From: Bacteroidota bacterium
GTDB taxonomy: Bacteria > Bacteroidota > Bacteroidia > Bacteroidales > GCA-2748055
Assembly (NCBI GenBank): GCA_030637895.1
Contig: DAOWFP010000066.1
Span: 1 to 38,052 of the forward strand
Length of the DNA: 38,052 nt
Direction: 5' to 3'
In this document: positions 7,409 through 26,459 of the stretch, piece by piece
How positions within the stretch are numbered: the stretch's first letter is position 1
Layout of the letters: every line of letters starts with the position of its first letter
Notes under the pieces: model-generated
What the model saw: only the letters and a program-made list of their open reading frames with translations
Database searches by the model: none
Told to the model about the DNA's origin: nothing
Translations under genes and position numbers: made by a program

Positions 7409-9661
7409 TTATTGGACTCCAGCTCCCCACGATTTATTGGCTTTTGGCCCCATTTCAAATAGCAGTTTCCCACCCTTCATCACTTCTTCATGAGTGATCC
7501 ATGGTGCGTCCAGTGTTTCGCCATTTAGCTCAGCAGACTGGATATACTTGTTTTCAGCGGATACATTCCGGGCCTCTAATTCAAAAAGCTGTCCATTACC
7601 CAGGTCGACCGAGACATGCTCAAAGACAGGACTCCCAATGGTATAGACCGGATCCCCCGGTGTCACAGGGTAGAGCCCAATCTGGCTGAAGACAACAAAG
7701 GCTGACATGCCTCCTCCATCTTCATCACCAGGCACTCCCATTAAATCGTTGCGAAACCACTCATCCAGTAATTTCCTAATGGATTTTTGCGTCTTCCAGG
7801 GCTGACCCGCATAGTTGTACAGATAAGGCACATGTAGGGAGGGTTCATTGGCCATGGAGAACTGTCCCACGTTCCCGGTATGATCTGGTAACTGGGCATA
7901 AAAACTATATTTACTTTTCCCCAGGGGTTCTTTGAACATGGCATCCAGTTCCCTGACAAATGCTTCCATACCACCCATTAGCAGGATAAGGTCGGGAATA
8001 TTATGTTGTACATCCCATCGGTAGACCCAGGCGTTATTCTCTCCATAATAGCCCCTGGCTCCCATTCCCCCCGAGTACCTGTAGTCGAAGGGCTCAATGA
8101 AGTTCCCGTTCCAATCCTTTGGGTGAAAAAATTTGGTTTCCCCATTGAACAGCTTCCGGTAATTGAGTGAAGCCTCCATGAAGTGTGCCGCATCCTCATT
8201 CTTCCCCAGTTCCTCTGCTAATTGAGCAAGGCACCACTGGTCGTAGGAAGTCCCCAGAGTGACAGCCACCGGCTGGCGGCGCTCAAAGGAATGCACCTCA
8301 GGGATGGTCTCTTCATCACCTTCGTATAATGCAGGGATGTAGCCCTTTTCATGGTAAAATGCATCAAGTTTTCCGGCAGGCAATCCTGACCAGGGTGCCA
8401 GTGTTTTTTCCATAATAGCTCCCCTGGTAGCGTTGTAAGCTTTTTCCAGGTCGAAATTGCCCAGCCCTTTTCGATGGGCATCGATTACGGAAGCTACTCC
8501 ATGGTTGGAGTTCATGCGCCGGCTGTCTCCTGTTATCTCAGGAAAGGTGGGCCACCAGAAGCGATCCATCTGCTCAGACATCAATACAAAGGAGTGAAGA
8601 ATATCTTCCTCCTGTTCCGGATCAAGAAGAATACGGAGCGGATGATGGGCTCGGTAAGAATCCCAGATCCAGTCATCCGTGTAAAAGGGCCGTCCTTTAT
8701 CCTCATGGACCTTGCCGTCAAAAGCACTGTAATATCGTCCGTTTTCCGAAATGCAAACCGGCCTCTCAAAACAACGGTAAAGGGAGGTGTAGAATACTAT
8801 CTGGTCATCGGTCGAATTTCCTTTGATACGGACTTTACCCAGAGCCTCGTTCCAGATATTGCGTCCGGCAGTTTGAAGTTCGTCTATTGTTTTTCCAAGC
8901 ACTTCACGCTCCATGTTCTGCTTTGCCTGGGCTTCATCAATAAAGGATATGCCGTATTTCATCTGCAGTATCCTGGTTTCCTGGGGGTACCTTAATATCA
9001 GGCAGGCATCCTTTCCTTCAGCCATGATAGCTTCACTGGTCGTTCCGTCTTTCATTGACACAACATTGGCAGGAGCCTTTTCTGGAAGAAAGTAAAGGTA
9101 AACCCGCGTATCGTTCTCAATGACCTGGAATCCGCTGATGGCCTCGCCGTCCCATTTTAATTCTCCCCTTTTTGAGTTCAGGACCAGTTGGACCGGGGCA
9201 TCCTTTTCAAACTCAAGTTTATAAGCAGCAGATTGATGCGACAGCCCGAAATCTACCTGGACTTGGGCCTCATCAAGGTAGACTGAATAGGAATAGGGCG
9301 TGAGTTTTTCCTGGTCGTAACTGTAATCTATAACGGATTTTAGCTGGGTCTCTTCTCCCTGAAAAGGGCTTAGATTAAATGCCGAACTGCCCCTGTGGCT
9401 GGTCACTACCAGGGGTAGACCATGTAGGCTGACTCCGGTATAGTCTCTTCGCTCAGGGTAAACCCGCAGCATGCTGTTGGGAAGGTGTATGGTGGGGAAA
9501 GTAGGGACCAGCAGATGGCTGATGTTTCCCATGTAAGGGTTCACGTAATCAACCGCTTGTTTTTCTCCTCCTTTGTGCAATTCCGGTTGGGATTTACAGC
9601 CCATACAAAGAAGTAGGATCAGGCCTATGCTTGCGCTAAAATAAAATTTATGTTTCTTCAC
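7409..9661 (-). CDS. GH92 family alpha-mannosidase, probable lipoprotein
   Basis: GTG start, lipobox-like LLCMGC; VDYVNPYMGN, WDSYRAHHP, YGENNAWVYRWDVQH, NEPSLH, PGDEDGGGMSA. Confidence 0.93.
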   Translation of the reverse strand: MKKHKFYFSASIGLILLLCMGCKSQPELHKGGEKQAVDYVNPYMGNISHLLVPTFPTIHLPNSMLRVYPERRDYTGVSLHGLPLVVTSHRGSSAFNLSPFQGEETQLKSVIDYSYDQEKLTPYSYSVYLDEAQVQVDFGLSHQSAAYKLEFEKDAPVQLVLNSKRGELKWDGEAISGFQVIENDTRVYLYFLPEKAPANVVSMKDGTTSEAIMAEGKDACLILRYPQETRILQMKYGISFIDEAQAKQNMEREVLGKTIDELQTAGRNIWNEALGKVRIKGNSTDDQIVFYTSLYRCFERPVCISENGRYYSAFDGKVHEDKGRPFYTDDWIWDSYRAHHPLRILLDPEQEEDILHSFVLMSEQMDRFWWPTFPEITGDSRRMNSNHGVASVIDAHRKGLGNFDLEKAYNATRGAIMEKTLAPWSGLPAGKLDAFYHEKGYIPALYEGDEETIPEVHSFERRQPVAVTLGTSYDQWCLAQLAEELGKNEDAAHFMEASLNYRKLFNGETKFFHPKDWNGNFIEPFDYRYSGGMGARGYYGENNAWVYRWDVQHNIPDLILLMGGMEAFVRELDAMFKEPLGKSKYSFYAQLPDHTGNVGQFSMANEPSLHVPYLYNYAGQPWKTQKSIRKLLDEWFRNDLMGVPGDEDGGGMSAFVVFSQIGLYPVTPGDPVYTIGSPVFEHVSVDLGNGQLFELEARNVSAENKYIQSAELNGETLDAPWITHEEVMKGGKLLFEMGPKANKSWGAGVQ

Positions 9662-9741: not shown

Positions 9742-9786
9742 ACAATATATAACGGAGGAAGTAATAAAATATTAATATTTCTTTAA
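9742..9786 (-). promoter_or_regulatory. Promoter with TTAA-N7-TTAA box upstream of the GH92/sulfatase gene run
   Basis: Plus strand AATATA 9744-9749, 22 nt, TTAA 9772, TTAA 9783. The minus strand reads TATATTGT, resembling the Bacteroidota -7 element TAnnTTTG. Confidence 0.7.
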
Positions 9787-9909: not shown

Positions 9910-12645
9910 TTACGAATTCAGCTTCAATGAGGTCGTAGAATAGAACTTATATTTACCTGAACCAATTTCTATTTCTGCCTGGCCATTCTCAAAACCACGC
10001 AATTGAATTTCCTTGCTATCCAGTATGGAAATACCGCTCTCAGTAATATCAGTTTTGGAGCTTGCCGGAATAAAAACAGTGGCTGATGTATTTTCCGGAA
10101 TATCAACTTCAAGGATAAAGCTTTCTTCGGTTTTCTCCCAGCTAACTTCAATCTTACCATAGGGAGAAATATGATAACCTAAGGCCCACTGCAGCGAATC
10201 AATTTGGGCGGGTTTAATGATAATATGCTTATAACCCGGGGCTTCCGTGTCGATCTGAATGCCTAATAAACCGCGTTGAAACCAGCCACCAATCCCATTC
10301 AGGCAACCATGAACCCGTGAATTGACCGGCTCCCAGTACTCGGGCCAGGTAATCTCACCCCTTGCAATAAACTCCCCATAGCTGGGATAGGTGGTTTGAT
10401 TCATGAGTGTGTGCAAGAGCTCATGCTTCCCTGTTTCGGTCAGGTATTTGGTCAGATAGTAGGTACCGTGAATTCCGGTATCAAAATGGCCATTCTGGTT
10501 TTTATTTATTTCTTCCGCCAACCTTTTCTCTACTTCAGGAATATCTTTCTCAGGCACTATTCCGGCCATCAGTGGCATCACCAGGTGGGTTTGTCTGGTA
10601 TCGATGTAGGTGTAGTTTATAGAATCATAATAGAAGTGGTTAATCGCATCGCTTAATTCCTGTGCTTTGGTCCGGTAAGCAAGGGCATTATCTTCCATTT
10701 TCAGAATATGAGCGATGTTGGCCGCAATTTTCAATACATATACATAGTAACAGTTGTTAAACAAGCTGGCTTCAGCAGTAAAACTTTCCTCATTTCCATG
10801 TGGATTTGCCCAATCCCCAAGGAAAAGCCATCGCTTACCATCCATGTACTCCCAATCGCCTGCGGATACCACATTCAGCAATCCATTTTCATTTATATGT
10901 TCTTCCATATACACGAGCCATTTTTGAGCAGCAAGAAAGGTGCTTTCCAGTATCCGTGTATTGCCATAGCTCAGATATACTTCCCAGGGCAGGGTGAGAA
11001 TAAAACCACTCCATGCAGGACCTCCTCCGCCCCCCAGAGTAGGTGCAGTATGGTTTATGCGCCCGCTTGCATCCTGAATATCCACCCAGTCCTGTGCCCA
11101 TTTTGTGAAGAAGGGGTGTGAAGCATAGGCATCGTTTGCTATATCCAGGCTGCCATGACCGTCGCCTCCGTATCCCAGCCTTTCACGGTGAGGGCAATCC
11201 ACAGACATACCTCCGGTGGATAGACTCTCGTAGGTATAGCAGGTGTTATCGTAAATCTGGTTCAGCAACTCATTTGAACAGTGAAAATCACCAAAGCGTT
11301 CACGGTCATTTGTAACCTGGTATCCAACTATATCATGTAGCTCCGGCTGGTAATCAATACCAGCAATGCTAATATATTCAACCTGGTGATAGGAAAACCT
11401 GTTTCTAAACTTCCCCTCTCCATCATCACCAATTACCAGCACGTTTGTCTGGTTAAATTCCACCGCTCTGTCCGGATAGGAGGAAGCTGAAATGGAGATA
11501 CGCTGTCCCGGCCTTCCCTTCAATGTGGCCTCAATCCAACCTGTGTAGATGGAATCCATGGTAAATTGATACTGTCGCTCTCCCGTTTTCTTCAAGGATA
11601 TAGCCGACCGTTTCTTTACCATCCTGTTGGGTTCCAGAAAATCAGAACTTAGCTTCAATCCACATGCTACCACATCAACCCTGGCCCACTGGCTCTCCTC
11701 AAAATGGTCTAGTGCCCATTCCACATCATGATCCGCATCCACAACCAGGTCTCCACCAAAATCGCTGTTTTGCCATCTACCCAGGTGGTAGGTATTGCTC
11801 GCCGAATAGCTCCACGATTCTCCTGTGGCGATCCAATGCTCCGGACTAATTCGAAATTGAGCCCTGCATAAAGGACTTTTTTCTACATTGAAATCTACTT
11901 TGGGATTAGCATCCGAAAAATCTGCCCATCCTGACGACAACCAGATAACAATGTTGTTCTTGCCTTCCTTCAAGTGTGGAGCAATATCATAACTTGAATA
12001 CAGGACCCTGTTTCTAAGATCTGAAACCGAGGGGCTAAGCACAGCATCGCTTACCTTCTTGCCATTCACATATAGTTCGTGAAATCCAAGGGATGCGACA
12101 AAGGCAGGGGCAAAAAGGGGTGTTCTATCCAGATCAAAATCATATTTAAAGTAGGGACAATTGCTTGAATCAATGTCCGGACCATAAATCCATTCTCCAA
12201 GCCACTCATTTTCATCCAGGATTCCCGTCTCGAAAGATGCCCATTTGCTGAATTTACTTTTGCTTCCCTTATTATCTTCAATTTGAATTCTCCAATAGTA
12301 TTTCCTTGCCGATTGGAGGGGCTCGCCTTCATACCTGATATTTACAGAATTCCCGGAAGGTATTTTACCTGAATTCCAAATGGGCCAGCTAGCATCCTCA
12401 GGTATTCTTTCAGATTCATATACCAGTATTCTGTACGAGGACTGAGCAACATTCCGTCTGCCAGGAGCATCAATTTCCCAGCTCAGGTAAGGACGTGAAT
12501 GTTCAACACCCCTGGGATTGGATAAAAACTCACACTTAAGCTTCCTTGCGATCAGGTCATAGGACAGATCTTTCTTATCCTGACAGGCCGTAAGGAGGAT
12601 AAGAGTCCCTATCATCAAAACAAGATTTACTGACCTATTTATCAT
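9910..12645 (-). CDS. GH78-like alpha-L-rhamnosidase family protein, probable lipoprotein
   Basis: Lipobox LLTAC; LKCEFLSNPRG N-terminal module; SLGFHELYVNG; DCPHRERLGYGGD; GDW; C-terminal PGYKHIIIKP...SPYGKIEVSW. Confidence 0.9.
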   Translation of the reverse strand: MINRSVNLVLMIGTLILLTACQDKKDLSYDLIARKLKCEFLSNPRGVEHSRPYLSWEIDAPGRRNVAQSSYRILVYESERIPEDASWPIWNSGKIPSGNSVNIRYEGEPLQSARKYYWRIQIEDNKGSKSKFSKWASFETGILDENEWLGEWIYGPDIDSSNCPYFKYDFDLDRTPLFAPAFVASLGFHELYVNGKKVSDAVLSPSVSDLRNRVLYSSYDIAPHLKEGKNNIVIWLSSGWADFSDANPKVDFNVEKSPLCRAQFRISPEHWIATGESWSYSASNTYHLGRWQNSDFGGDLVVDADHDVEWALDHFEESQWARVDVVACGLKLSSDFLEPNRMVKKRSAISLKKTGERQYQFTMDSIYTGWIEATLKGRPGQRISISASSYPDRAVEFNQTNVLVIGDDGEGKFRNRFSYHQVEYISIAGIDYQPELHDIVGYQVTNDRERFGDFHCSNELLNQIYDNTCYTYESLSTGGMSVDCPHRERLGYGGDGHGSLDIANDAYASHPFFTKWAQDWVDIQDASGRINHTAPTLGGGGGPAWSGFILTLPWEVYLSYGNTRILESTFLAAQKWLVYMEEHINENGLLNVVSAGDWEYMDGKRWLFLGDWANPHGNEESFTAEASLFNNCYYVYVLKIAANIAHILKMEDNALAYRTKAQELSDAINHFYYDSINYTYIDTRQTHLVMPLMAGIVPEKDIPEVEKRLAEEINKNQNGHFDTGIHGTYYLTKYLTETGKHELLHTLMNQTTYPSYGEFIARGEITWPEYWEPVNSRVHGCLNGIGGWFQRGLLGIQIDTEAPGYKHIIIKPAQIDSLQWALGYHISPYGKIEVSWEKTEESFILEVDIPENTSATVFIPASSKTDITESGISILDSKEIQLRGFENGQAEIEIGSGKYKFYSTTSLKLNS

Positions 12646-12750: not shown

Positions 12751-12806
12751 CTAATATAGGATCCCGGGAATAGCAAAACATTAAAGTCGCATTAATAAAA
12801 GATTAA
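12751..12806 (-). promoter_or_regulatory. Promoter with three 11-bp-phased TTAA boxes upstream of GH78
   Basis: AATATA 12753-12758, 22 nt, TTAA at 12781, 12792 and 12803; minus strand TATATTAG. Confidence 0.72.
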
Positions 12807-12821
12807 AGCTTCAATAATAGC

Positions 12822-15230
12822 TTAAAGGTGCTTTGTCCAGATCTCTTTGATGGTTTCCTCCTGGGAATAACCAGTGGGGCATTCCTCACTTTTTGTATTC
12901 GCATGGTAGTTGCCATTTGTTTCGTTGGGACAGGATATCATGCGACTCACCGGCATTTGCAGATGTCCGTTGGGATCGGTTTCTTTTAACCAGTTAAAGG
13001 CATATTTCAACCAATCGTTCCTGTATTCCTCTGGCTGCTGAGCATACCAGGAGATCTCATCCCAGCCCCAAACAAAGATGGAGGTGGTGTCTGCTTCATT
13101 GGGTGGAGTCTTTCGTCCGTAGTTATCAAACTCAACCAGGTAAGGAAGGCTTTTACAGCTCCAGCCACTGGGTGAGATACATCCTTTACTTTTTTTGAAA
13201 AGCCCATCCAGGTAGTTCACCTCCAGCTTACTTTCATAGGGTTTCTCAGGAATTTCTTTGATGCGCATGGGAAAGGAGTTAAAATCGATCAGGCTTACAC
13301 CGTCCTTTACCATATCTCCCCTGGGCACATGGGCATCAAGCAGGACCCAATTCCTGCGGGCATGCTTCCCTGCATACTCCCGGATCTTTGTCAAAAGTCC
13401 GGCCCAATCTTTCCGTTCCGGATCATTCATTCCAATGAGCTCCACCTGTCCCAGATGAAAAGCTTCACAGCCCAGATCCATGTACGATCCTGCCAGGTAG
13501 TAGAACCAGAGTCGCGATTCCACTTTACTGATATCAGGCACGCTGCTTCCCTCCCGCCAGTGATTCACATAAATACCCTTGTCATTCAGCATGGCTTCAT
13601 AGGAGAAATTTCTTTGCTCATCAGGCAATCCAAAATCTTCAAATACCCAATGTGGTATTTTCACCTCATTCACTTCTTCGGTCACAATTTCAAATAAACA
13701 GCCCTGGAAAATTATTTCCGGATCAAATGCATGGAGGGTATCCATCAGGGATTTTGCATCGCTCCAGAAATCAGGATCATTTAAACGACTTTCGCCTCCC
13801 CAACGATAGAGGGCCCGCCCGATAAATTTGGCACCGATATTCTTTATTAATCGGATATCGTCGGAATGAAAGGGATAGGTACGTCGGCCTTCGGGATGAT
13901 GTGGTACCAGGAAAAAGGCCATGGTGACTGAGCGGTCCAGGTAGTTTTCCAACACCTCTCGTGATATCCCATCTTTATCAAAATTGAATGACCTGGACCC
14001 TCCAAATGTCCTGTTATATAGATTCTCCTCTTTATCAAAGCAGCCTGCCATTTGAATAACAGCCTGATCATTCTCAATGCTTATGGGAGAATCGGAAACA
14101 TAATTTCTCATGCGGCTTCCCCATATGGATACAGTTAATTTCTTATCTCCTCTTACCAGCAGGAAATCCCATGACATATTTTCAGGGACCGTGGTAAGTG
14201 CTCCATTCCCCCCCGAAAATGCTTCCACATTGCTCAGAGAAGTATGCCCCTCTCCTTCGATAATGATGGGATGTATATTTTCAACGCTCTCGCCGGTATT
14301 GGCGATAATGGAGCCCTGTGCAATCTGCCAGTTACGGTTCTTTGTGTTGTTGCCTCGTTTTAAAATGCCAACAGCCACACAGTCGAAGTTGAAATTGGTA
14401 AGTTGCCCGTAGGATTCTCCATCCAGCAGAATCCCTCCATAAGTGCCAAAGGTGAAGAGATCAATCAGCTGTGCATTATCGGTATGATTTATGGTAAAGG
14501 TAAAGGTCTTTTTTGCGATGACGGCATCCACCACTTCCCTGCTGAACTGCCCTCCAATAAAACGCTGTATGGCAGGATTCACATGACAATGCAAGATGCG
14601 TGGAACATCATAACAGTAATTTATCCGGATAAACTCACCACTGAGGGGGTATCCGTAGCAGTGTTCAAAGGTCATTAGCTCGCAGGCAAATTTTCGCTGC
14701 GCATTAAAATCAAAGGCCAGGTATTCACCGTAAAAGGTAAGGCATGAAAGGTAGACACCCTGAGATCTGCTGGTTTCCGAAACCTTTATGGTGGCCGGAT
14801 ATGGAATAATGGCCGTCGGATCATCAATGGTTTGCTCGGGATACCAGAACTGGATCCCCTTTATCTGTGTACCCGACTCTACGGTAATGAAGGCATTCTC
14901 CTGATCGGTAATGGCAAAAACACTTCCCACCGGCTGCTTTTTGGTTGAATGGGCCGTCCCCCGCGGAGTTGGTCCATGCACCCCGATCAGTGAAACATTT
15001 TTCTTCAAAATGATTCCGCCGTCCACTGCATAGGGTTCTTCTGAGGGTTCTACCAGGAGAGCCGAACCGGTAGCAGAGGCCCAGTCAATGGCTTTTTGAA
15101 GGTTGAGCTTATTTTTGGCGGAACTGTTCCCCGGCTTTACACCAAATTTTTGAATACTTGGTATCTCGGATGCTACGGCCAGATTTATACTGAGGACCAG
15201 CAGCAAAGATATGATTGCAATCCTTTTCAT
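12822..15230 (-). CDS. Secreted two-domain hypothetical protein (right-handed beta-helix-like N-terminus plus putative barrel C-terminus)
   Basis: 802-aa ORF with signal peptide. The N-terminus FGVKPG...NLQKAID...Y.VDGGIIL..NVSLIG resembles the Pectate_lyase_3-type start. A second domain begins near FNFDKDGISREVLENYL. Confidence 0.7.
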   Translation of the reverse strand: MKRIAIISLLLVLSINLAVASEIPSIQKFGVKPGNSSAKNKLNLQKAIDWASATGSALLVEPSEEPYAVDGGIILKKNVSLIGVHGPTPRGTAHSTKKQPVGSVFAITDQENAFITVESGTQIKGIQFWYPEQTIDDPTAIIPYPATIKVSETSRSQGVYLSCLTFYGEYLAFDFNAQRKFACELMTFEHCYGYPLSGEFIRINYCYDVPRILHCHVNPAIQRFIGGQFSREVVDAVIAKKTFTFTINHTDNAQLIDLFTFGTYGGILLDGESYGQLTNFNFDCVAVGILKRGNNTKNRNWQIAQGSIIANTGESVENIHPIIIEGEGHTSLSNVEAFSGGNGALTTVPENMSWDFLLVRGDKKLTVSIWGSRMRNYVSDSPISIENDQAVIQMAGCFDKEENLYNRTFGGSRSFNFDKDGISREVLENYLDRSVTMAFFLVPHHPEGRRTYPFHSDDIRLIKNIGAKFIGRALYRWGGESRLNDPDFWSDAKSLMDTLHAFDPEIIFQGCLFEIVTEEVNEVKIPHWVFEDFGLPDEQRNFSYEAMLNDKGIYVNHWREGSSVPDISKVESRLWFYYLAGSYMDLGCEAFHLGQVELIGMNDPERKDWAGLLTKIREYAGKHARRNWVLLDAHVPRGDMVKDGVSLIDFNSFPMRIKEIPEKPYESKLEVNYLDGLFKKSKGCISPSGWSCKSLPYLVEFDNYGRKTPPNEADTTSIFVWGWDEISWYAQQPEEYRNDWLKYAFNWLKETDPNGHLQMPVSRMISCPNETNGNYHANTKSEECPTGYSQEETIKEIWTKHL

Positions 15231-19766: not shown

Positions 19767-19811
19767 TTAATATAGCATCATTGCTGAAAAAAAACATTAA
19801 TTAATTCTTAA
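19767..19811 (-). promoter_or_regulatory. Promoter with TTAA-N7-TTAA box upstream of the MFS-ROK operon
   Basis: AATATA 19769-19774, 22 nt, TTAA 19797, TTAA 19808. Confidence 0.7.
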
Positions 19812-19932: not shown

Positions 19933-22458
19933 GTGACCTATAATACAAAAACAAAGAATAGCTTATTGAGTCGGATATTATGGCTATTCCTACTCGCCTT
20001 CATGCACTTATGCACCATTGTTGAAGGACAGTATTATGGAATGAAGTTTGCCGGTATTGAACATTCTCTTGATCAGCGATCAGGTCTTAATCTTACTCCG
20101 GAGCATTCTCTTAATTTCAAGGGCAATCTGGATCTGGAGTTTTACCTTCGTTTTGAAGCGGATCATGAATCCTACTTTGGTTACATCTTTCGACTCATTC
20201 TCGGAGATAAGAACATCGACTTAATTCATGGTGTCGTCCCCGGTAATCCCAATAACTTCGAATTGATCCTCGATGGGAAAACCAGTGATATCGCTTTTAA
20301 GGTTCCTCTTGATGATCTAAGAAAAGGCTGGTTAAAAATCAGGCTGGAGCTAAATTTCGAAGAGGGTCAGATTACCTTCTATTACAATGACATAGCTCTG
20401 GTGGAAGATCTAGACGCCTATGATCCTAGAAGTGGTTTTCGATTGATGTTTGGGGCCAACTCATTTGGTAACTTTTCATCCACAGATGTTCCAAATATGA
20501 TTATCCGGGACGTGCAGGTGAAAAGTGGGAAAAACACCAGGATAATCTGGCCCCTGGATGAAACTGGTGGTATTATCGCCCATTCCTTTCCCGGGGGAAA
20601 TAATGGAATTGCAGTCAATCCGGAATGGTTATTGAAATACCATAATACCTGGGACCAGAGGTTGAGCAAGCAGATATCCGGAGAAGTAAAGACAGCCTTT
20701 GATTCCAAAAACGATGATCTTTATTTACTCACTACGGATTCTCTCCATATATATAATATAGCGGATGATTCCATAAGAAGCTTAGCTCTGGGATTAGCTT
20801 ACCCCCTTGAAAGTTCCACCCAAATTATCTTTGACACCTCCTCCAATAATCTATTGATGTACTCCCTGGATTATAATTTTATAGCCACTTTTGATTGGGA
20901 GACAAGGATGTGGGACACATATGATACGGGTCCAAGAGATATTACAGTCTACTGGCACCACAGCCGTTTTATTGATCAGGATGGATCGCTTATTGCCTTC
21001 GGTGGCTATGGGCAGTATACCTTTAAAAATTCGGTATTTCTCTGGAATCCCGAAAAGAGTCGTTTCGATAGCATTAGTTACCAGGGAGACTTTCTTCCCA
21101 GGTATCTTGCAGGGGCAGGCTATAATCCCGGCGATAGTCTTTTCTATTTAATAGGTGGCTACGGTAGTGAAAGCGGAAAACAATCTGAGAGTCCGGACTA
21201 CTATTATGAGTTGATCCGTTTCTCCCCGGACGACAGAGCTTTTTCCAATGTGCATAAGTTCGAGGATACAGAGGCCGGATTCTGCTTTGCTAATTCCATT
21301 GTTTTTGATGATGCCAACAATCTTTATGCGCTTTATTTTCCCAAATATCAATTTGACAACCAGCTCCAGTTAATCAAGGTCTCACCTGAGAATCCTGAAA
21401 TTTTTGAGCTGGGGAACGCCATTGATTTCAGTTTTCTGGATATAAACTCAAGTGCTGATCTTTATTACAGCCAGAGATCCGGTTCCCTCCTGGCATTATC
21501 ATCCTACACTTCAGATGGCACCACTCAGGTCTCTATTAATACCATTGCATTTCCACCGCAAAGTTTTTCGACAAAAACTGTAGCAGAGCAAAAACGAAAC
21601 CCTGGTATTGTTAAATACTTTTTGATTGCAGTCCTGGTGTTTGTAGCCAGCTACCTGATTAGTCTTCTAAGGAAAAAGGGGAAGTCTTCAAAAAGAAAAA
21701 CTATTTCTACCCACAGGGAAGGAGCTCCAACAACCAGGGCGAACTCCATCATCCTATTCGGGGGATTCCAGGTAATAGACAAAGCCGGGAACGATATCAC
21801 AGGTCAGTTTACCCCCCTGCCGAAGAAATTATTTCTGTTCATTCTTCTGCACTCCTTGCGAAACGATAAAGGGGTCTCATCCAACACCCTTTATGAAACC
21901 TTCTGGTTTGAAAAAGCAGTGGAAAGTGCCAGAAATAACAGGGCTGTGAATATCGTAAAATTGAAATCCCTGCTCGACAGTCTTGATTCTGCTGCCATCT
22001 CAAAAGCTACCGGTTACTGGAAATTCAATTTTGACCCTGCTGCGATATCTATAGACTATTTTGAATACCTGCAACTTGTCAGCCAGACAAAGGAAACAAC
22101 AAGGGAGCAAGTTGTTCGTCTTCTGGCTATTATTGAAAACAATCCCTTTTTAAACAATACAAATGCTGATTGGCTCGACCCCTTCAAATCTGAAGTATCC
22201 AATGCCATCATTGACACCTTATTCAGGTATATCCATAACGCTGATGATGATCCAGAGTTTCTGCTGCACCTGACCAAATGCATTTTTCAATGTGATATCG
22301 TTAGTGAAGAAGCACTTAAGATCCAGTTGCGCTTGCTCATCAAGCAAGGCAAGCACAGCCTGGCACAGAAAGCTTACTCGATTTTTCTTAAGGAGTACGA
22401 AACGCTTTATAATGAAGCCTACGGTTTAAGCTTTAAACAGCTTATTGGCGAGGAGTAG
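19933..22458 (+). CDS. Membrane-spanning one-component transcriptional regulator (periplasmic LamG/Kelch-like sensor, cytoplasmic SARP/OmpR-like wHTH-BTAD domain)
   Basis: N-terminal hydrophobic signal; Kelch-like FGGYG and IGGYG repeats; TM IVKYFLIAVLVFVASYLISLL followed by a basic stretch; C-terminal ILFGGFQV...LFLFILL...FW...ARNNRAVNIVKLKSLL and a helical tail. The GTG start is uncertain. Confidence 0.8.
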   Translation: MTYNTKTKNSLLSRILWLFLLAFMHLCTIVEGQYYGMKFAGIEHSLDQRSGLNLTPEHSLNFKGNLDLEFYLRFEADHESYFGYIFRLILGDKNIDLIHGVVPGNPNNFELILDGKTSDIAFKVPLDDLRKGWLKIRLELNFEEGQITFYYNDIALVEDLDAYDPRSGFRLMFGANSFGNFSSTDVPNMIIRDVQVKSGKNTRIIWPLDETGGIIAHSFPGGNNGIAVNPEWLLKYHNTWDQRLSKQISGEVKTAFDSKNDDLYLLTTDSLHIYNIADDSIRSLALGLAYPLESSTQIIFDTSSNNLLMYSLDYNFIATFDWETRMWDTYDTGPRDITVYWHHSRFIDQDGSLIAFGGYGQYTFKNSVFLWNPEKSRFDSISYQGDFLPRYLAGAGYNPGDSLFYLIGGYGSESGKQSESPDYYYELIRFSPDDRAFSNVHKFEDTEAGFCFANSIVFDDANNLYALYFPKYQFDNQLQLIKVSPENPEIFELGNAIDFSFLDINSSADLYYSQRSGSLLALSSYTSDGTTQVSINTIAFPPQSFSTKTVAEQKRNPGIVKYFLIAVLVFVASYLISLLRKKGKSSKRKTISTHREGAPTTRANSIILFGGFQVIDKAGNDITGQFTPLPKKLFLFILLHSLRNDKGVSSNTLYETFWFEKAVESARNNRAVNIVKLKSLLDSLDSAAISKATGYWKFNFDPAAISIDYFEYLQLVSQTKETTREQVVRLLAIIENNPFLNNTNADWLDPFKSEVSNAIIDTLFRYIHNADDDPEFLLHLTKCIFQCDIVSEEALKIQLRLLIKQGKHSLAQKAYSIFLKEYETLYNEAYGLSFKQLIGEE

Positions 22459-22467
22459 TAACACCCT

Positions 22468-22501
22468 AAAAAAAGAGAGTGTACCTTTTGATACACCCTC
22501 T
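22468..22501 (-). terminator. Intrinsic terminator
   Basis: Minus strand AGAGGGTGTATC-AAAA-GGTACACTCTCT followed by a T-run. The 12-bp stem has two G-U pairs that would be A-C mismatches on the plus strand. Confidence 0.85.
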
Positions 22502-22558
22502 AAACCTGAAATACTTCAACTAACTAAATTACTACTAAAAAACTACTTGCGTTATTCT
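22468..22558 (-). ncRNA. Candidate ~90-nt small RNA
   Basis: Bounded by a conserved promoter (22564-22608) and the terminator; no ATG; U/G-rich body with repeated UAGU. The 5' end is estimated from the -7 element. Confidence 0.6.
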
Positions 22559-22563
22559 GGGTG

Positions 22564-22608
22564 CTAATATATAGCTGGATAAATAAAAAATTATTAATAA
22601 TACCTTAA
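22564..22608 (-). promoter_or_regulatory. Promoter with TTAA-N7-TTAA box not followed by an ORF
   Basis: AATATA 22566-22571, 22 nt, TTAA 22594, TTAA 22605; minus strand TATATTAG. Confidence 0.7.
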
Positions 22609-22628
22609 TACAGTAATTAATTTCGTTT

Positions 22629-24926
22629 TTATTCCCAGAACACTCTTTTTTCTGGTCCCATTATGAATGTAATGGTGGCACCTGCCTCAATATCAGCGTG
22701 ATTAATATATGGTTCCTCTAGCTTAACTCCATTTAGTTGAACCTCCTGTACATATGGATTGGCTTCTGATCTGTTCCTGGCGATAACACTAAAAATCTTC
22801 CCATTGGCCATATCAATTTCCACCCTGTCAAAGGAGGGGCGCCCTATAGAGTAACGAACATCACCCGGACATACAGGATAAAAGCCAATGGAATTCAGAA
22901 TGTACCAGGCAGACATCTGTCCGCAATCCTCATTCCCCACAATTCCATCAGGTTTATCTGTGTAGAACTGCTCCAGGATCTCTGAGACAAGCTCCTGTGT
23001 TCTCCAGGGCTGATCCACGTAGTTATAAAGGTAGGCGATATGGTGACTGGGCTCATTTCCATGTGCATACTGTCCAATCAGGCCTGTAATATCCACACTT
23101 TTCTCTTCCCCAAGAACTTCTGAGGTAATGCTAAAGAGCGAATCAAGTTTAATGATAAATGACTCTGGCCCTCCCATCAGATCAATCAGCCCGTAAACAT
23201 CATGCGGTACATACCAGGTCCATTGCCATGCATTTCCCTCAACATAGGGTGTTGCCCAATGGGCCGAGTACCTTGGATGAAAGGGCTCCAACCAGCTTCC
23301 ATCCAGATTCTTACCACGCATAAAGCCAAGCTCTGGATCAAAATAGGTGGAGTAGCGCTTTGACTTTGCGAAGAACTCCTCGGCTAAATCCTCTTCACCC
23401 ATTTCTTTTGCCATGCTTGCTATGGCCCAGTAGTTATAAGCGAATTCCAATGCCTTTGATACAGAAGAATGCTCCAGATCGCATGGAATGAAGCCATATT
23501 TTTCCTCAAATAACTTCGCTTCCGGCATCAGGTTCCCCCAGGCCTCCTCAGAGGGATAGTTGATCTCTTTAATGGTGTCATAAGCCACTGAATGAACGAT
23601 TGCTTCAAGTGCCTTCTCCGCATCAAAGTTGCGATGGCCCTTCATATAGGCATCAACGATTACCGAAACCGCATGTGATCCGATCATGGTTCCTGTATAG
23701 TTGGAAGCCAATCCCCACATGGGTAATATTCCGCCTTCATCGTATTTCCGCAGGAGAGCCCTGATTAGCTCCTGGTTGTAATCCTGGTTCAGTATGGTAA
23801 ACAAGGGATGAAGCGCACGGTGGGTATCCCACAAGGAAAATACTGTATAATTGGGGCTGCTGGAGTAATGAATCTGCTGATCCATGCCCCGGTAGGTCCC
23901 ATCCACATCAGAATAGATCCCCGGGTATATGGAACTATGGTACAGGGCAGTATAAAAGGTCCTTTTCTCACTCAGGTCATTTGTCTCTATCCGTACTTTT
24001 GACAGCTCCTTCTCCCAGATCCTCTCCGCCTGGCTGCTGATGTAATCGAAATCCCATCCATTTAACTCCTGGTTCAGGTTCTTTGCCGATCCTTCATAAC
24101 TAACTGCACTAAGTCCAATCTTTGCAATAACCTGCTCCCCTTCTTCCGTATGAAATTTTAATTTAAGCTTCGCATTCTTACCTGATACACTTGTACTGCC
24201 CTCCTGCAGCTCATTGTCCAGGTATAACTCGGCATCAAAGGGTTTTGAAAATTTCGCAGTAAAATAGACATAATGATTCTTCGCCCACCCGGAAGTCACT
24301 TTCAGGCCCTGGATCTCTTGCTTATTAAGTATTTTAATCTCGTGAAGAGGGTTTTCATGACCATGAATGGTATGTGTTAGATCTATCAGAATTCCAGCAT
24401 TCTCTGCTTCAGGAAAAGTATAGCGGTGCATTCCCGTATGGTAAGTCGAGCTTAATTCAACTCCTACATTATAATCTGTTAGCTCAACGCTGTAGTAGCC
24501 AGGTCGGGCACTTTCCTTCTCTTTGTTAAATCTTGATCTGTATCCTGAATCGATCTGATCTTCAGAACCTGCATCCAGGGAAACTTCCCCGGTATAAGGC
24601 ATAAATAAAATATCTCCATAGTCTCCAATTCCGGTTCCACTCAGATGGGTATGGCTGAAACCAAGGATGGAAGAGTCTGAGTAGTGATAACCGGCGCAGG
24701 CATCCCAGCCAAGGGTACGTGTATCAGGACTAAGTTGTACCATACCAAAGGGAAGTGTGGCACCGGGAAATGTATGTCCATGGAAATCAGTACCGATAAA
24801 AGGGTCTACATAAGCAACGAATTCTGCACGATTCCGGCTTTTTATTATGGGCCCGCCACAGGCAAAAACGATAAGCGCAAATAGCGTGATGAGGAAAAGT
24901 GGACTTTTGAATCCTATCGTTGTCAT
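22629..24926 (-). CDS. GH92 family alpha-1,2-mannosidase-like, probable lipoprotein
   Basis: YVDPFIGT..HGHTFPGA..PFGMVQLSPDT, GFSHTHLSGTG, SLWDTHRALHP, EGNAWQW, HGNEPSHH, GNEDCGQMSAWY. Confidence 0.95.
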   Translation of the reverse strand: MTTIGFKSPLFLITLFALIVFACGGPIIKSRNRAEFVAYVDPFIGTDFHGHTFPGATLPFGMVQLSPDTRTLGWDACAGYHYSDSSILGFSHTHLSGTGIGDYGDILFMPYTGEVSLDAGSEDQIDSGYRSRFNKEKESARPGYYSVELTDYNVGVELSSTYHTGMHRYTFPEAENAGILIDLTHTIHGHENPLHEIKILNKQEIQGLKVTSGWAKNHYVYFTAKFSKPFDAELYLDNELQEGSTSVSGKNAKLKLKFHTEEGEQVIAKIGLSAVSYEGSAKNLNQELNGWDFDYISSQAERIWEKELSKVRIETNDLSEKRTFYTALYHSSIYPGIYSDVDGTYRGMDQQIHYSSSPNYTVFSLWDTHRALHPLFTILNQDYNQELIRALLRKYDEGGILPMWGLASNYTGTMIGSHAVSVIVDAYMKGHRNFDAEKALEAIVHSVAYDTIKEINYPSEEAWGNLMPEAKLFEEKYGFIPCDLEHSSVSKALEFAYNYWAIASMAKEMGEEDLAEEFFAKSKRYSTYFDPELGFMRGKNLDGSWLEPFHPRYSAHWATPYVEGNAWQWTWYVPHDVYGLIDLMGGPESFIIKLDSLFSITSEVLGEEKSVDITGLIGQYAHGNEPSHHIAYLYNYVDQPWRTQELVSEILEQFYTDKPDGIVGNEDCGQMSAWYILNSIGFYPVCPGDVRYSIGRPSFDRVEIDMANGKIFSVIARNRSEANPYVQEVQLNGVKLEEPYINHADIEAGATITFIMGPEKRVFWE

Positions 24927-24948: not shown

Positions 24949-24993
24949 ATAAAATAAGATTGGCAACTTAATTTTCGATTAACAAATGATTAA
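24949..24993 (-). promoter_or_regulatory. Promoter with three 11-bp-phased TTAA boxes upstream of GH92
   Basis: TTAA at 24968, 24979 and 24990; AAAATA 24951-24956 (one mismatch to AATATA) lies 22 nt from TTAA 24979. Confidence 0.6.
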
Positions 24994-24994
24994 T

Positions 24995-25717
24995 TTACCG
25001 GGAATCCAATAATTTTGTAGTTGAACTCACTAATTTACTGATAATTTCCCCCACCCATTCCCTGTATTGCTCTCCACTGGGGTGCAATCCGTCTTCGGCC
25101 ACCAGTCCAGGCTCACTTAGCCCCCTCCTGGATATGGGTGTGATATCTAAGCAGGCAATGTCAAATTCAGCTGCTATCCTTTTATTAATCTCGTTATAGG
25201 CATCTATTTCTCTGCTTATGGTCTTGTCCCTTTTCCCAAAGGGTGTAAAGGCATAATCGGGAATAGAGAGTATAAACACTCGGGAGGAATCCTGGGCGAC
25301 AAGCTCCAGAGCCTTATCGATGATTTGCCGCAACTCAGGTTCATAGATATTGATATCCAGGCCCTGGTACTGATTATTTACGCCAATAAGGATGGATACC
25401 AGGTTATAGCTTATATTCCTGTCAAGATCCTTATTAAAACCATTTAATAGATCTGAGGTGGTCCATCCTGTAACTGCAATGTAATCAGGATCCTTTGCTT
25501 TTATACCCTTACTCCTGAGAGCAGCTATAAACTGATATGGCCATCGCTGTTCAGGCTTCACACTCTCTCCAATGGTATAAGAGTCACCCAGTGCCAGCAT
25601 TCGAACCTCCTGCGAAATTGTAATTTCCTGTGACAGAATTTGCATATTCATAGCTAAAAGAATTATATACAGAAAAAGATTTTTTAGAGCTAAACTTTTT
25701 TTAAATATTCGTCTCAT
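24995..25717 (-). CDS. SGNH/GDSL hydrolase
   Basis: ALGDSYT, IGVNN, DGLHP. Start moved to ATG 25717 (MRRIFKK) to avoid overlap with the divergent gene; a start slightly downstream is also possible. Confidence 0.9.
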   Translation of the reverse strand: MRRIFKKSLALKNLFLYIILLAMNMQILSQEITISQEVRMLALGDSYTIGESVKPEQRWPYQFIAALRSKGIKAKDPDYIAVTGWTTSDLLNGFNKDLDRNISYNLVSILIGVNNQYQGLDINIYEPELRQIIDKALELVAQDSSRVFILSIPDYAFTPFGKRDKTISREIDAYNEINKRIAAEFDIACLDITPISRRGLSEPGLVAEDGLHPSGEQYREWVGEIISKLVSSTTKLLDSR

Positions 25718-25763
25718 GCTTAGTTGTTTTGTACATTCGTATGATATAATAATAAAAACAATC

Positions 25764-26459
25764 ATGAAAAAAACGCTTTCTCATTCCCTAACAACCTTAT
25801 TCCTTCTATTTTCACTGTTTGCAAGCTCCCATGGACAAGAGAGCTGGATCAAGCTTTTCGATGGTCAGACATTGAAGGGATGGTCCGTACACAGTGGTAA
25901 TGCCACTTACAAAGTGGAGGACGGAGCCATTGTGGGACAGGCCGTGAAAAACAGTCCCAATACCTTCCTGTGCACCGACCGTGAATTTAGTGATTTTATC
26001 CTTGAATTCGAGGTTTTGGTTGATGATGAACTCAATTCCGGAGTGCAGTTCAGAAGCCATATCGCTCCTCAGGAATTGGTCTTCTGGTTCAGGAATGATA
26101 AAGGAGACTATCAGCCTACAACCATCCCTGCAGACAGGGTATACGGGTACCAGGTGGAAATCGCTGCCGGAGGTGGGTCCGGGGGGGTTTACGATGAAGC
26201 CCGAAGGGCCATGACGCCCTGGTGGCCAGAGGAGGGTTCAGAAGAAAGAAAGGCATTTAAGAGTAAGAAATGGAATATCTATCGGATTGAATGCAAAGGT
26301 GATTCAATCAGGACCATTGTGAATGGAGTGATCGTAACTGACTTCAGGGATGCTCTGTCGGGCAGAGGTATCATTGGCCTGCAGGTACATGATGTGGGTA
26401 ATGATTCCACCCCCTACCAGGTACGATGGAGAAACATCAGGCTGCTGCCACTGGATTAA
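25764..26459 (+). CDS. DUF1080 (3-keto-glycoside hydrolase/hydratase-like) protein, secreted
   Basis: W..LFDGQTLKGW, FSDFILEFE, NSGVQFRS, GYQVEI, GIIGLQVH, WRNIRL. Start ATG 25764 gives a signal peptide. Confidence 0.9.
   Translation: MKKTLSHSLTTLFLLFSLFASSHGQESWIKLFDGQTLKGWSVHSGNATYKVEDGAIVGQAVKNSPNTFLCTDREFSDFILEFEVLVDDELNSGVQFRSHIAPQELVFWFRNDKGDYQPTTIPADRVYGYQVEIAAGGGSGGVYDEARRAMTPWWPEEGSEERKAFKSKKWNIYRIECKGDSIRTIVNGVIVTDFRDALSGRGIIGLQVHDVGNDSTPYQVRWRNIRLLPLD

Follow-up and report, generated by a model that had tools for sequence, protein, structure and literature searches.

A candidate small RNA with a predicted operator/promoter of its own in the 3' untranslated region of a Bacteroidales GH92 gene

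The convergent gap and its operator copy

We analysed a 38,052-nt stretch of DNA (contig DAOWFP010000066.1, positions 1 to 38,052 of the forward strand, GenBank assembly GCA_030637895.1; hereafter, the window) from a Bacteroidota bacterium that GTDB places in the Bacteroidales (GCA-2748055). Here, we describe a short unit in the 170-nt gap on which two open reading frames (ORFs) converge, one for a membrane-spanning regulator (stop at 22458, plus strand) and one for a GH92 alpha-mannosidase-family protein (stop at 22629, minus strand). The gap contains a predicted operator/promoter, an ATG-free stretch, and an intrinsic terminator, a sequence arrangement that probably specifies a sugar-induced regulatory RNA. 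The source assembly (G000) comprises 2,373,527 bases in 210 contigs, is 58.75% complete, and lacks annotation; the metagenomes that share the stretch are cold-seep and marine-sediment DNA runs. Loci in relatives carry L-numbers and the relatives' assemblies, many of them fragmented, carry G-numbers.

Read along the minus strand, the gap holds, in order, the GH92 stop codon, a GAAATTAAT block, TTAAGGTATTATTAAT, 22 nt, TATATT, an ATG-free stretch of about 57 nt, and a 12-bp hairpin with U7. An earlier reading of the letters alone (the sequence-only reading) had reported an exact copy of TTAA-N7-TTAA-N22-TATATT in this gap, and the copy is present at 22608-22566 (minus strand). It combines a pair of TTAA(T/G) direct repeats, spaced at 11 nt, with a third, degenerate repeat and a -10/-7-like box, TATATT(AG). 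The GAAATTAAT block upstream, with its extra TTAA repeat (Table 1), is conserved in L017, L020, and L021.

The motif is specific to this locus. The window has four exact copies, every one of them on the minus strand (mean expected from 100 dinucleotide shuffles, 0.00), and no copy beyond these four was found when the whole 2.37-Mb assembly was searched with the spacer relaxed to 20-24 nt. Relaxing the -10 box to TAnnTT gave six window matches (0.00 expected). Five of these are minus-strand sites, including a fifth site at 24993-24951, and so the motif is not restricted to the four exact copies; the sixth (12781-12823, plus strand) overlaps the site at 12795-12753 and is its palindromic TTAA read backwards. 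Four of the five operators have a gene start within about 110 nt downstream, while the one at 22566-22608 precedes only the short unit. The position weight matrix score of that site, 53.6, is the highest of the five, with a matrix partly built from the site itself and its orthologues.

The GH92 assignment is clear: the product matches the Pfam GH92 catalytic domain (E 1.4e-172) and N-terminal domain (E 1.7e-87) as well as NCBIfam TIGR01180. Its gene has an operator of its own, with three clean repeats about 25 nt ahead of the start codon (24926), and a triple-repeat operator upstream of GH92 also occurs in L046, L047, L049, L051, and L053, which are all the loci with enough sequence. By these sequence comparisons, GH92 is a conserved member of the regulon, with predicted operator function, and the candidate RNA therefore sits in the 3' untranslated region (UTR) of a regulon mRNA. 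The sequence-only reading had held that a gap between convergent stops should need no promoter; the convergent stops stand, but the gap is not promoter-free ground in that sense, being the 3' UTR of a GH92 mRNA that has its own operator. The operator of the divergent operon is kept beside most orthologous regulators, and TTAA(T) repeat promoters recur beside both orthologues and paralogues of the regulator.

Downstream of the operator, the unit was said to be ATG-free and unstructured, with a 12-bp terminator fully paired on the minus strand only and an end about 10 nt from the regulator stop, and all of this holds. The body has no minus-strand ATG and no stop-to-stop frame longer than 29 aa, and the centroid structure is essentially the terminator alone, with the body unstructured (minimum free energy -20.0 kcal/mol, z -3.60; 0 of 200 shuffles were as good). 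The terminator stem (22501-22474) has 12 pairs, five of them G-C, closed by a 4-nt loop and followed by TTTTTTT. Two of the pairs are G.U and would turn into A.C mismatches on the plus strand, which leaves the stem complete on the minus strand alone; the U-tract likewise exists on that strand only. It stops at 22467, leaving 9 nt to the regulator stop. This is the only terminator between the GH92 stop and the regulator gene, and the unit thus has the position of a 3'-UTR small RNA, downstream of the parent stop codon and sharing the parent's terminator. The start zone was placed with the Bacteroidota -7 promoter rule.

We also considered and rejected a small protein: a plus-strand ATG-AAA-AAA start opens 31 codons in L021, 9 in L017, and none in G000. 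As a separate observation, the terminator hairpin, GAGGSTGTATCAAAAGGTACASYCTC with a conserved loop (window 22474-22501; L002-L015), turns up nearly unchanged in at least 10 of the 41 genomes searched, behind unrelated genes and behind tRNA genes (L005, L015), which is unusually uniform for terminators.

Table 1. Features of the window that bear on the candidate RNA and the putative regulon.
Feature	Position	Strand	Basis	Remarks
Candidate-RNA operator/promoter	22566..22608	-	exact match	conserved in orthologous loci
Extra upstream TTAA repeat	22617..22620	-		12 nt before the first operator repeat, within the GAAATTAAT block after the GH92 stop
Predicted transcription start zone	22556..22562	-	distance downstream of the TATATTAG box	
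Body	22502..22558	-	sequence, fold, ORF scan	C-poor, U/G/A-rich, repeated UAGU/AGUAG
Intrinsic terminator	22467..22501	-		12-bp stem, loop AAAA, U7; common to GH92 mRNA and candidate RNA
GH92 alpha-mannosidase-family gene	22629..24926	-	Pfam, NCBIfam	candidate RNA in its 3' UTR
Fifth operator/promoter, before GH92 start	24951..24993	-	relaxed match	TTAAT-N6-TTAAT-N6-TTAAG ... TATTTT
Regulator, membrane-spanning one-component type	19933..22458	+		
Operator/promoter of the divergent operon	19769..19811	-	exact match	
MFS-ROK-oxidoreductase-phosphoesterase operon	starts 19730		Pfam	divergent from the regulator gene
Operator/promoter before the GH78 gene	12753..12795	-	exact match	
GH78 rhamnosidase-family gene	9910-12645		Pfam	downstream of operator 12753..12795
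Operator/promoter before the second GH92 gene	9744..9786	-	exact match	
Second GH92 gene	7409-9661		Pfam	downstream of operator 9744..9786

Two further features of the window were noted. The last ORF of the MFS operon (12822-15230; 802 aa) falls in no Pfam or NCBIfam family. A GDSL-type hydrolase ORF (24995-25765, minus strand) and a 3-keto-disaccharide-hydrolase-family ORF (25716-26459, plus strand) have a 50-nt head-to-head overlap, which makes it probable that one or both of the start codons lie further in.

Conservation of the gap and the predicted fold of the regulator

Orthologous loci were reached through the regulator protein (53-59% identity within the genus), with L049 and L052 added from a scan of species genomes. 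We counted 11 loci with convergent regulator and GH92 genes (G000, L017, L018, L019, L020, L021, L022, L023, L024, L035, and L049), and omitted L052 and L025/L056, which have other downstream genes. The convergent ORF is GH92 in all nine of the relatives' loci tested by Pfam and likewise in G000; L019 is nearly identical to L018. Operator, body, and terminator occur together in the same place and orientation in six of the 11 (G000, L017, L020, L021, L022, and L035), with the -10 box weakened to TATTAT in L022 and to TAAATT in L035. Three loci (L018, L019, and L023) have the body, which there reads AAUAGUAGUAGUUCUGAGUAGUAGUAGUUUUAGUU, directly after the GH92 stop and followed by the terminator, with no operator, and the remaining two (L024 and L049) have gaps of only 13 or 11 nt and none of the unit. 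The sequence-only reading had tied its idea to the persistence of promoter, body, and terminator beside orthologous regulators, and the idea survives this comparison, since six loci keep all parts and three more keep body and terminator.

The body core aligns with (A)UAGUAGUAGUU units in eight orthologous loci, the body carries between two and six UAGU/AGUAG copies across loci, and the L020 body contains a masked run of N. No gene lies between GH92 and the regulator in any locus examined. By DNA similarity search of 41 genomes, only the terminator hairpin recurs, body and promoter being without match.

A maximum-likelihood tree was built from 15 regulator sequences, ten of them orthologues; the L035 regulator, being split into two frames, was excluded. 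The ten orthologues form one clade (support 99/98), promoter-bearing loci fall on several deep branches, and L020, which has the promoter, is sister to L023, which has none. This suggests, at the level of sequence, that the promoter is old and has been lost several times, as the simplest account of the tree, and it has been kept across branches of 0.3-0.8 changes per protein site. In the split locus itself (L027/L035, G063:C132), the regulator match runs in two overlapping frames (query 18-484 and 466-840), which indicates either a frameshift or a faulty assembly.

The closest pair, L017 and L021, have regulator proteins that are 77.5% identical. Between them, the gap is identical at 159 of 214 positions (74%) vs 127 of 226 fourfold sites in the regulator gene (56%), the operator and -10 box are nearly completely identical, and the body includes a 30-nt block without a single difference. 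Promoter and body thus evolve more slowly than silent sites.

Strain variation was assessed from contigs of four DNA runs aligned to 22000-23100, and the numbers are small. A 773-nt contig from X5 differs at 18 positions plus one insertion (2.3% diverged). Four of its changes fall within 22468-22608 (22522, 22544, 22560, and 22563), and all of them spare the TTAA repeats, the -10 box, and the stem of the terminator. A 110-nt contig from X1 lacks 11 nt at 22531 (22531-22541), and with them one UAGU unit, and the reference form is present in the same run. Such a pattern is consistent with constraint on promoter and terminator and with tolerance of changes in unit number within the body.

The regulator is ordered as a signal or transmembrane segment, an extracytoplasmic domain with a Kelch-type propeller, a transmembrane helix, and a cytoplasmic SARP-like domain. 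Pfam recognises only the Kelch-type repeats and NCBIfam no family; the translation has one hydrophobic segment at the N-terminus and a second near residue 575, and the C-terminal part begins LFGGFQV. The last 252 aa were aligned with 19 relatives and modelled with AlphaFold2 (mean pLDDT 89.4), and the model was compared with the PDB using Foldseek. The six best matches are the AfsR SARP domain (8hvr_I, 8k60) and EmbR (2ff4, 2fez), at E 5e-6 to 2e-4 and TM-scores of 0.62-0.65; they span nearly the whole model, the best being 8hvr_I (E 5.2e-6, TM-score 0.62), and 8hvr_I and 8k60 are structures of AfsR in transcription-activation complexes. The predicted fold is therefore that of a SARP-type domain, with a winged helix and BTAD-like helices.

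SARP proteins bind direct repeats one helical turn apart beside a -10 box. The TTAA-N7-TTAA repeats at the five promoters of the window have a spacing of 11-12 nt that fits such operators by analogy; they extend into the -35 zone, and the GH92 site has a clear third one. The operator reading thereby gains support from both the fold and the repeat spacing, and we infer from them that the regulator binds these sites. The likeness to AfsR and EmbR would extend to the modelled cytoplasmic fold and to a direct-repeat operator of about one helical turn that runs into the -35 zone.

In the portion of the literature drawn on here, "SARP-OmpR" is listed among regulators of polysaccharide utilization loci (PULs). 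A literature search for a characterised SARP-type PUL regulator found no example, and a different type, BguR, came up. SusR and BguR (the latter known from a preprint) are described with a periplasmic sensor, one transmembrane helix, a DNA-binding end, and no phosphorelay, which is also the plan of this regulator. BguR differs in that its published description gives a GerE/LuxR helix-turn-helix end and a tandem propeller plus Y_Y_Y sensor, whereas the regulator here has a Kelch-type propeller and a SARP end.

The regulator family extends well beyond this genus, with 322 relatives in species genomes of Bacteroidales, Chitinophaga, Mucilaginibacter, Dyadobacter, and Larkinella. Next to the Bacteroidales-like members that we inspected (L046-L061 plus a few more), we saw promoters with TTAAT direct repeats. 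Based on the modelled fold, the family (L046-L125 included) apparently comprises uncharacterised membrane-spanning SARP-type one-component regulators.

Known small RNAs and UAGU-rich 3'-UTR tracts of the genus

FopS and GibS of Bacteroides thetaiotaomicron, as described in the parts of Ruttiger et al. (2025) used here, pair through a C-poor unstructured 5' part with the start regions of glycan-transporter mRNAs, and FopS represses, among others, the high-mannose N-glycan locus PUL72. The Rfam scan that the sequence-only reading had proposed gave no match in the window at gathering thresholds. At E values up to 10, the FopS model (RF04319) matches at full length at 22546-22465 (minus strand; 17.6 bits vs a cut-off of 56, E 1.4-2.4). 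In two loci (G000, 17.6 bits; L035, 26.6 bits), the match falls exactly on body and terminator, on the right strand. The unit has the architecture of this type, a C-poor unstructured 5' part plus a terminator, with core and terminator together about 70-80 nt vs about 65-70 nt in FopS, a likeness that does not imply homology. The conserved block of L017, L021, and L035 is UUUUUUUCAUA(A)AGUAG-like, i.e., a complement of a start codon plus lysine codons as in the FopS consensus, and its CAU is missing from G000, L018, L019, and L023.

In the published accounts as far as they are drawn on here, FopS and GibS resemble the candidate in being short, with a C-poor unstructured 5' part, an intrinsic terminator, and a link to glycan use; one FopS member is derived from a 3' UTR, and the FopS family is multicopy, like the UAGU tracts described below. 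FopS differs in having canonical housekeeping promoters and a bile response, whereas the candidate carries a locus-specific activator site, and FopS and GibS pair near start codons, whereas our scans found no such target for the candidate. SrcF of Segatella copri and DonS of Bacteroides fragilis likewise couple a glycan regulator or locus to a small RNA. As a review describes them, SrcF is intergenic and repressed by a glycan-sensing hybrid two-component system, in contrast to the SARP-type activator site here, and DonS is cis-antisense and overlaps its target gene, whereas the candidate ends 9 nt short of its neighbour. It would overlap the regulator transcript only if that RNA read past the hairpin, which has no plus-strand U-tract.

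The "type I" 3'-UTR small RNAs with their own promoter, DapZ and MicL of the enterobacteria, are Hfq-dependent and experimentally mapped; to our knowledge, the phylum Bacteroidota lacks Hfq. In both, as in the unit described here, a promoter after or within the end of the parent gene is combined with a terminator shared with the parent mRNA, and sister lineages carry the sequence as a 3' UTR only, without the promoter. The candidate differs in that its start is predicted and in that parent mRNA and small RNA would share one activator.

UAGU-rich tracts are not confined to this gap. In G000, TAGT occurs 3.36 times per kb in the 50 nt before 226 terminator-like sites vs 1.73 genome-wide, and a few tracts similar to the body are present (contigs C5:959, C14, C92:5455, C103, and C122:1566). 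Elsewhere in the genus (G019, G020, G023, G055, and G058), C-free UAGU-rich tracts and GTTAGTA/TAGTAGT-type arrays occur at L139, L142-L149, L154, L163, L164, L167, L170, and L175. Most of the tracts looked at are on the sense strand between a stop codon and a terminator, and they contain stop codons in all frames of both strands and almost no C. Their sequence is complementary to A/C-rich leaders of the genus, such as the leader in L126-L134. Copy number differs by species, and the tract after a glucuronate-isomerase-like gene exists in three versions (L144, L146, and L148). At L149 (G020:C1:439970-440100), a TAGTAGTTAATGTGT array with a 15-nt period is followed by a G-free CCACTAT-type array that is roughly complementary, and the two could form a very long imperfect hairpin.

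A literature search on UAGU or heptamer 3'-UTR tracts returned nothing on the UAGU type and only work on TAACTGA repeats. The latter are described, in the part of MacGregor (2015) used here, as intergenic heptamers that are abundant in Beggiatoaceae, Cyanobacteria, and five Bacteroidetes and that may be a post-transcriptional binding site. The relatives' tandem 7-nt arrays of TAGTAGT or GTTAGTA (complement TAACTAC-like) are likewise intergenic, some of them directly after stop codons, but differ in unit sequence, and the published repeats, as described there, lie mostly just upstream of start codons. We rejected the G000 body itself as a heptamer direct-repeat array: its UAGU spacing is irregular, and no two heptamer copies stand head to tail.

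A second element came up in these comparisons. About 78 nt long and conserved in many genomes of the genus (L126-L132, L134, and L137; e.g., G045:C42:93491-93568), it begins U-rich with UUUUCAUAG, continues with UUUAGUUUUAGGGUUAGUUUAGUUUU and a G+C-rich hairpin with a U-tract, and is preceded by a conserved TAATTTCG box. Its FopS-model score is about 30-35 bits (cut-off 56), and it has the look of a distinct small-RNA candidate.

A probable regulon-embedded small RNA and the alternatives

The reading that we favour, with confidence somewhat better than even, is that the gap encodes a regulon-embedded small RNA, made from its own activator-dependent promoter in the GH92 3' UTR and co-induced with the glycan-catabolic genes. 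On an extracytoplasmic glycan signal, the membrane-spanning SARP-type regulator would occupy the TTAA(T) direct repeats and bring in RNA polymerase, just as it would at the four promoters of mRNAs. The promoter at 22566-22608 could then yield nothing but a non-coding RNA of about 90-95 nt, starting at about 22562-22556 and ending at about 22468, at the GH92 terminator; we infer this start, and the RNA itself, from the arrangement of the gap. The RNA would be made whenever the regulon is induced, and lineages without the internal promoter would make the tract only as the end of the GH92 mRNA. Its action would most likely be to pair with G-poor, A/C-rich translation-initiation regions, as FopS and GibS do, a mode suggested by the body composition and the FopS analogy, with ACUACUA or CUAUGAAAAA-type sites as possible partners. 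Alternatively, it may pair with the convergent regulator transcript, and antisense action on the regulator is possible.

A number of results weigh against this reading, beginning with the body. The sequence-only reading had pointed to UAGU repeats in the body; the repeats are there, but they are not special to the RNA, being common in the genus's 3' UTRs. A search for the exact complement of UAGUAGUAGUU gave eight matches in two nearly complete relatives vs 18-22 for a reversed control. Two of the eight are in coding sequence; the other six, all sense-strand, are flanked by a stop codon upstream and an intrinsic terminator downstream. Only one of the six is the orthologous locus, and the other five follow unrelated genes, judged by eye from their translated ends to be glucuronate-isomerase-like, sugar-isomerase-like, and oxidoreductase-like, with two that have secretion-type C-termini. 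A two-unit pattern gave 37 matches in five genomes, many in long GTTAGTA-type heptamer arrays directly after stop codons. By sequence, the UAGU-rich, C-poor body is a genus-wide 3'-UTR feature, and since its motif occurs in unrelated 3' UTRs, its conservation here may reflect a general 3'-UTR constraint and not a seed. The body also tolerates change in strains (the 11-nt deletion allele and four substitutions), the internal promoter is absent from five of the 11 orthologous loci, and the terminator is generic, since its hairpin recurs behind unrelated genes and behind tRNAs elsewhere in the genus.

Nor did target searches support the pairing in trans with A/C-rich leaders that the sequence-only reading had put forward. 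Exact complements of the RNA within the window are the locus itself and coding sites only, and only the plus-strand continuation of the regulator gene complements it perfectly. A seed-and-duplex scan of G000 gave a best non-self duplex of -41.8 kcal/mol vs -31.8 to -38.2 for the best of each of 10 shuffles, which we counted as no target, and a duplex scan of the 10.5-kb locus L051 gave -18.0 vs -18.5 to -22.9 in shuffled sequence. A 20-nt anti-seed pattern in G020 and G049 had four non-self matches vs five for the control; none begins a long ORF, and one is another UAGU 3' UTR. None of the scans thus supports a trans target. Membership in the FopS family is rejected, the G000 score being far under the gathering cut-off. 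The other six of the seven related loci scanned had no FopS match at E up to 10, and none of 49 genus genomes had one above the cut-off. For the regulator, Pfam has no family that matches the C-terminal 252 aa or the N-terminal part (E up to 10), and searching the PDB by sequence with both ends gave chance matches only, so the SARP assignment depends on the predicted fold. Finally, 20 of the 22 runs listed contain part of the stretch, and all are DNA.

How far do these results favour other explanations? That there is no independent small RNA, only a plain GH92 3' UTR with a generic terminator and an operator copy that is bound weakly or not at all, or that modulates GH92 3'-end formation, seems to us unlikely. 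L018, L019, and L023 do have the body directly after the GH92 stop with no promoter, UAGU tracts before terminators are common in the genus, and the gap is transcribed anyway when the regulon is on, since GH92 has its own operator. But the site in the gap outscores the other four in the window (with the matrix partly built from it and its orthologues), and the retention of promoter elements in several deep lineages, including the -10 box at fixed spacing, is hard to explain if they do not initiate transcription. The absence of any supported trans target, and a sole perfect complement in the continuation of the regulator gene, could point to an operator that acts at the DNA level only, insulating the convergent pair or providing feedback on it through interference or collision with read-through regulator transcripts, or through titration of the membrane-tethered regulator near its own gene, with the short RNA a by-product. 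The site faces the regulator gene in all six loci that have it, and the hairpin has its U-tract only on the minus strand. We nevertheless give this explanation low credence: an operator-only role leaves unexplained a 30-nt body block that is 100% identical where fourfold sites are 56% identical, body and terminator persist in three loci without the operator, and two loci with gaps of 11-13 nt have no such device.

Two other explanations fare worse. We think it very unlikely that the RNA is a protein decoy, whose single-stranded UAGU units titrate an RNA-binding protein (e.g., an RRM-type Rbp) that also binds UAGU-rich 3' UTRs. Such a role would suit the two to six UAGU/AGUAG units in an unstructured, C-poor context, their recurrence in many 3' UTRs of the genus, and the variation in unit copy number among strains and species, as for a multivalent site; it is purely conjectural, and the portions of the literature used here name no short binding motif for Bacteroidota RNA-binding proteins. 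A relic promoter, left by a lost gene between GH92 and the regulator and decaying neutrally, has still less to recommend it and strikes us as highly improbable. Decay would account for the missing promoter in five of 11 loci, the weakened -10 boxes of L022 and L035, and the regulator match split in two frames in G063 (L027/L035), but a relic would not be expected to persist over 0.3-0.8 changes per protein site or to be more conserved than fourfold sites, no examined locus has a gene in that position, and the upstream GAAATTAAT block is conserved as well.

A broader proposal would set the candidate within a genus-wide post-transcriptional layer, in which C-free UAGU or heptamer tracts in the 3' UTRs of sugar-catabolic and secreted-protein genes are complementary to G-poor, A/C-rich start regions. 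Here, one such tract would be transcribed alone under a membrane-spanning SARP-type glycan sensor of an uncharacterised class, broadcasting to other mRNAs or to an RNA-binding protein without a phosphorelay. We regard this as unlikely.

If the reading of a regulon-embedded small RNA is true, the Bacteroidota would offer a clean, testable case in which one glycan sensor, a membrane-spanning SARP-type one-component regulator, uses a common operator to drive enzymes, a transporter, and a small RNA. Lineages with and without the internal promoter would then show a 3' UTR becoming an independent small-RNA gene, and the genus-wide UAGU-rich 3'-UTR tracts may point to wider RNA-level control of carbohydrate use in sediment Bacteroidales.

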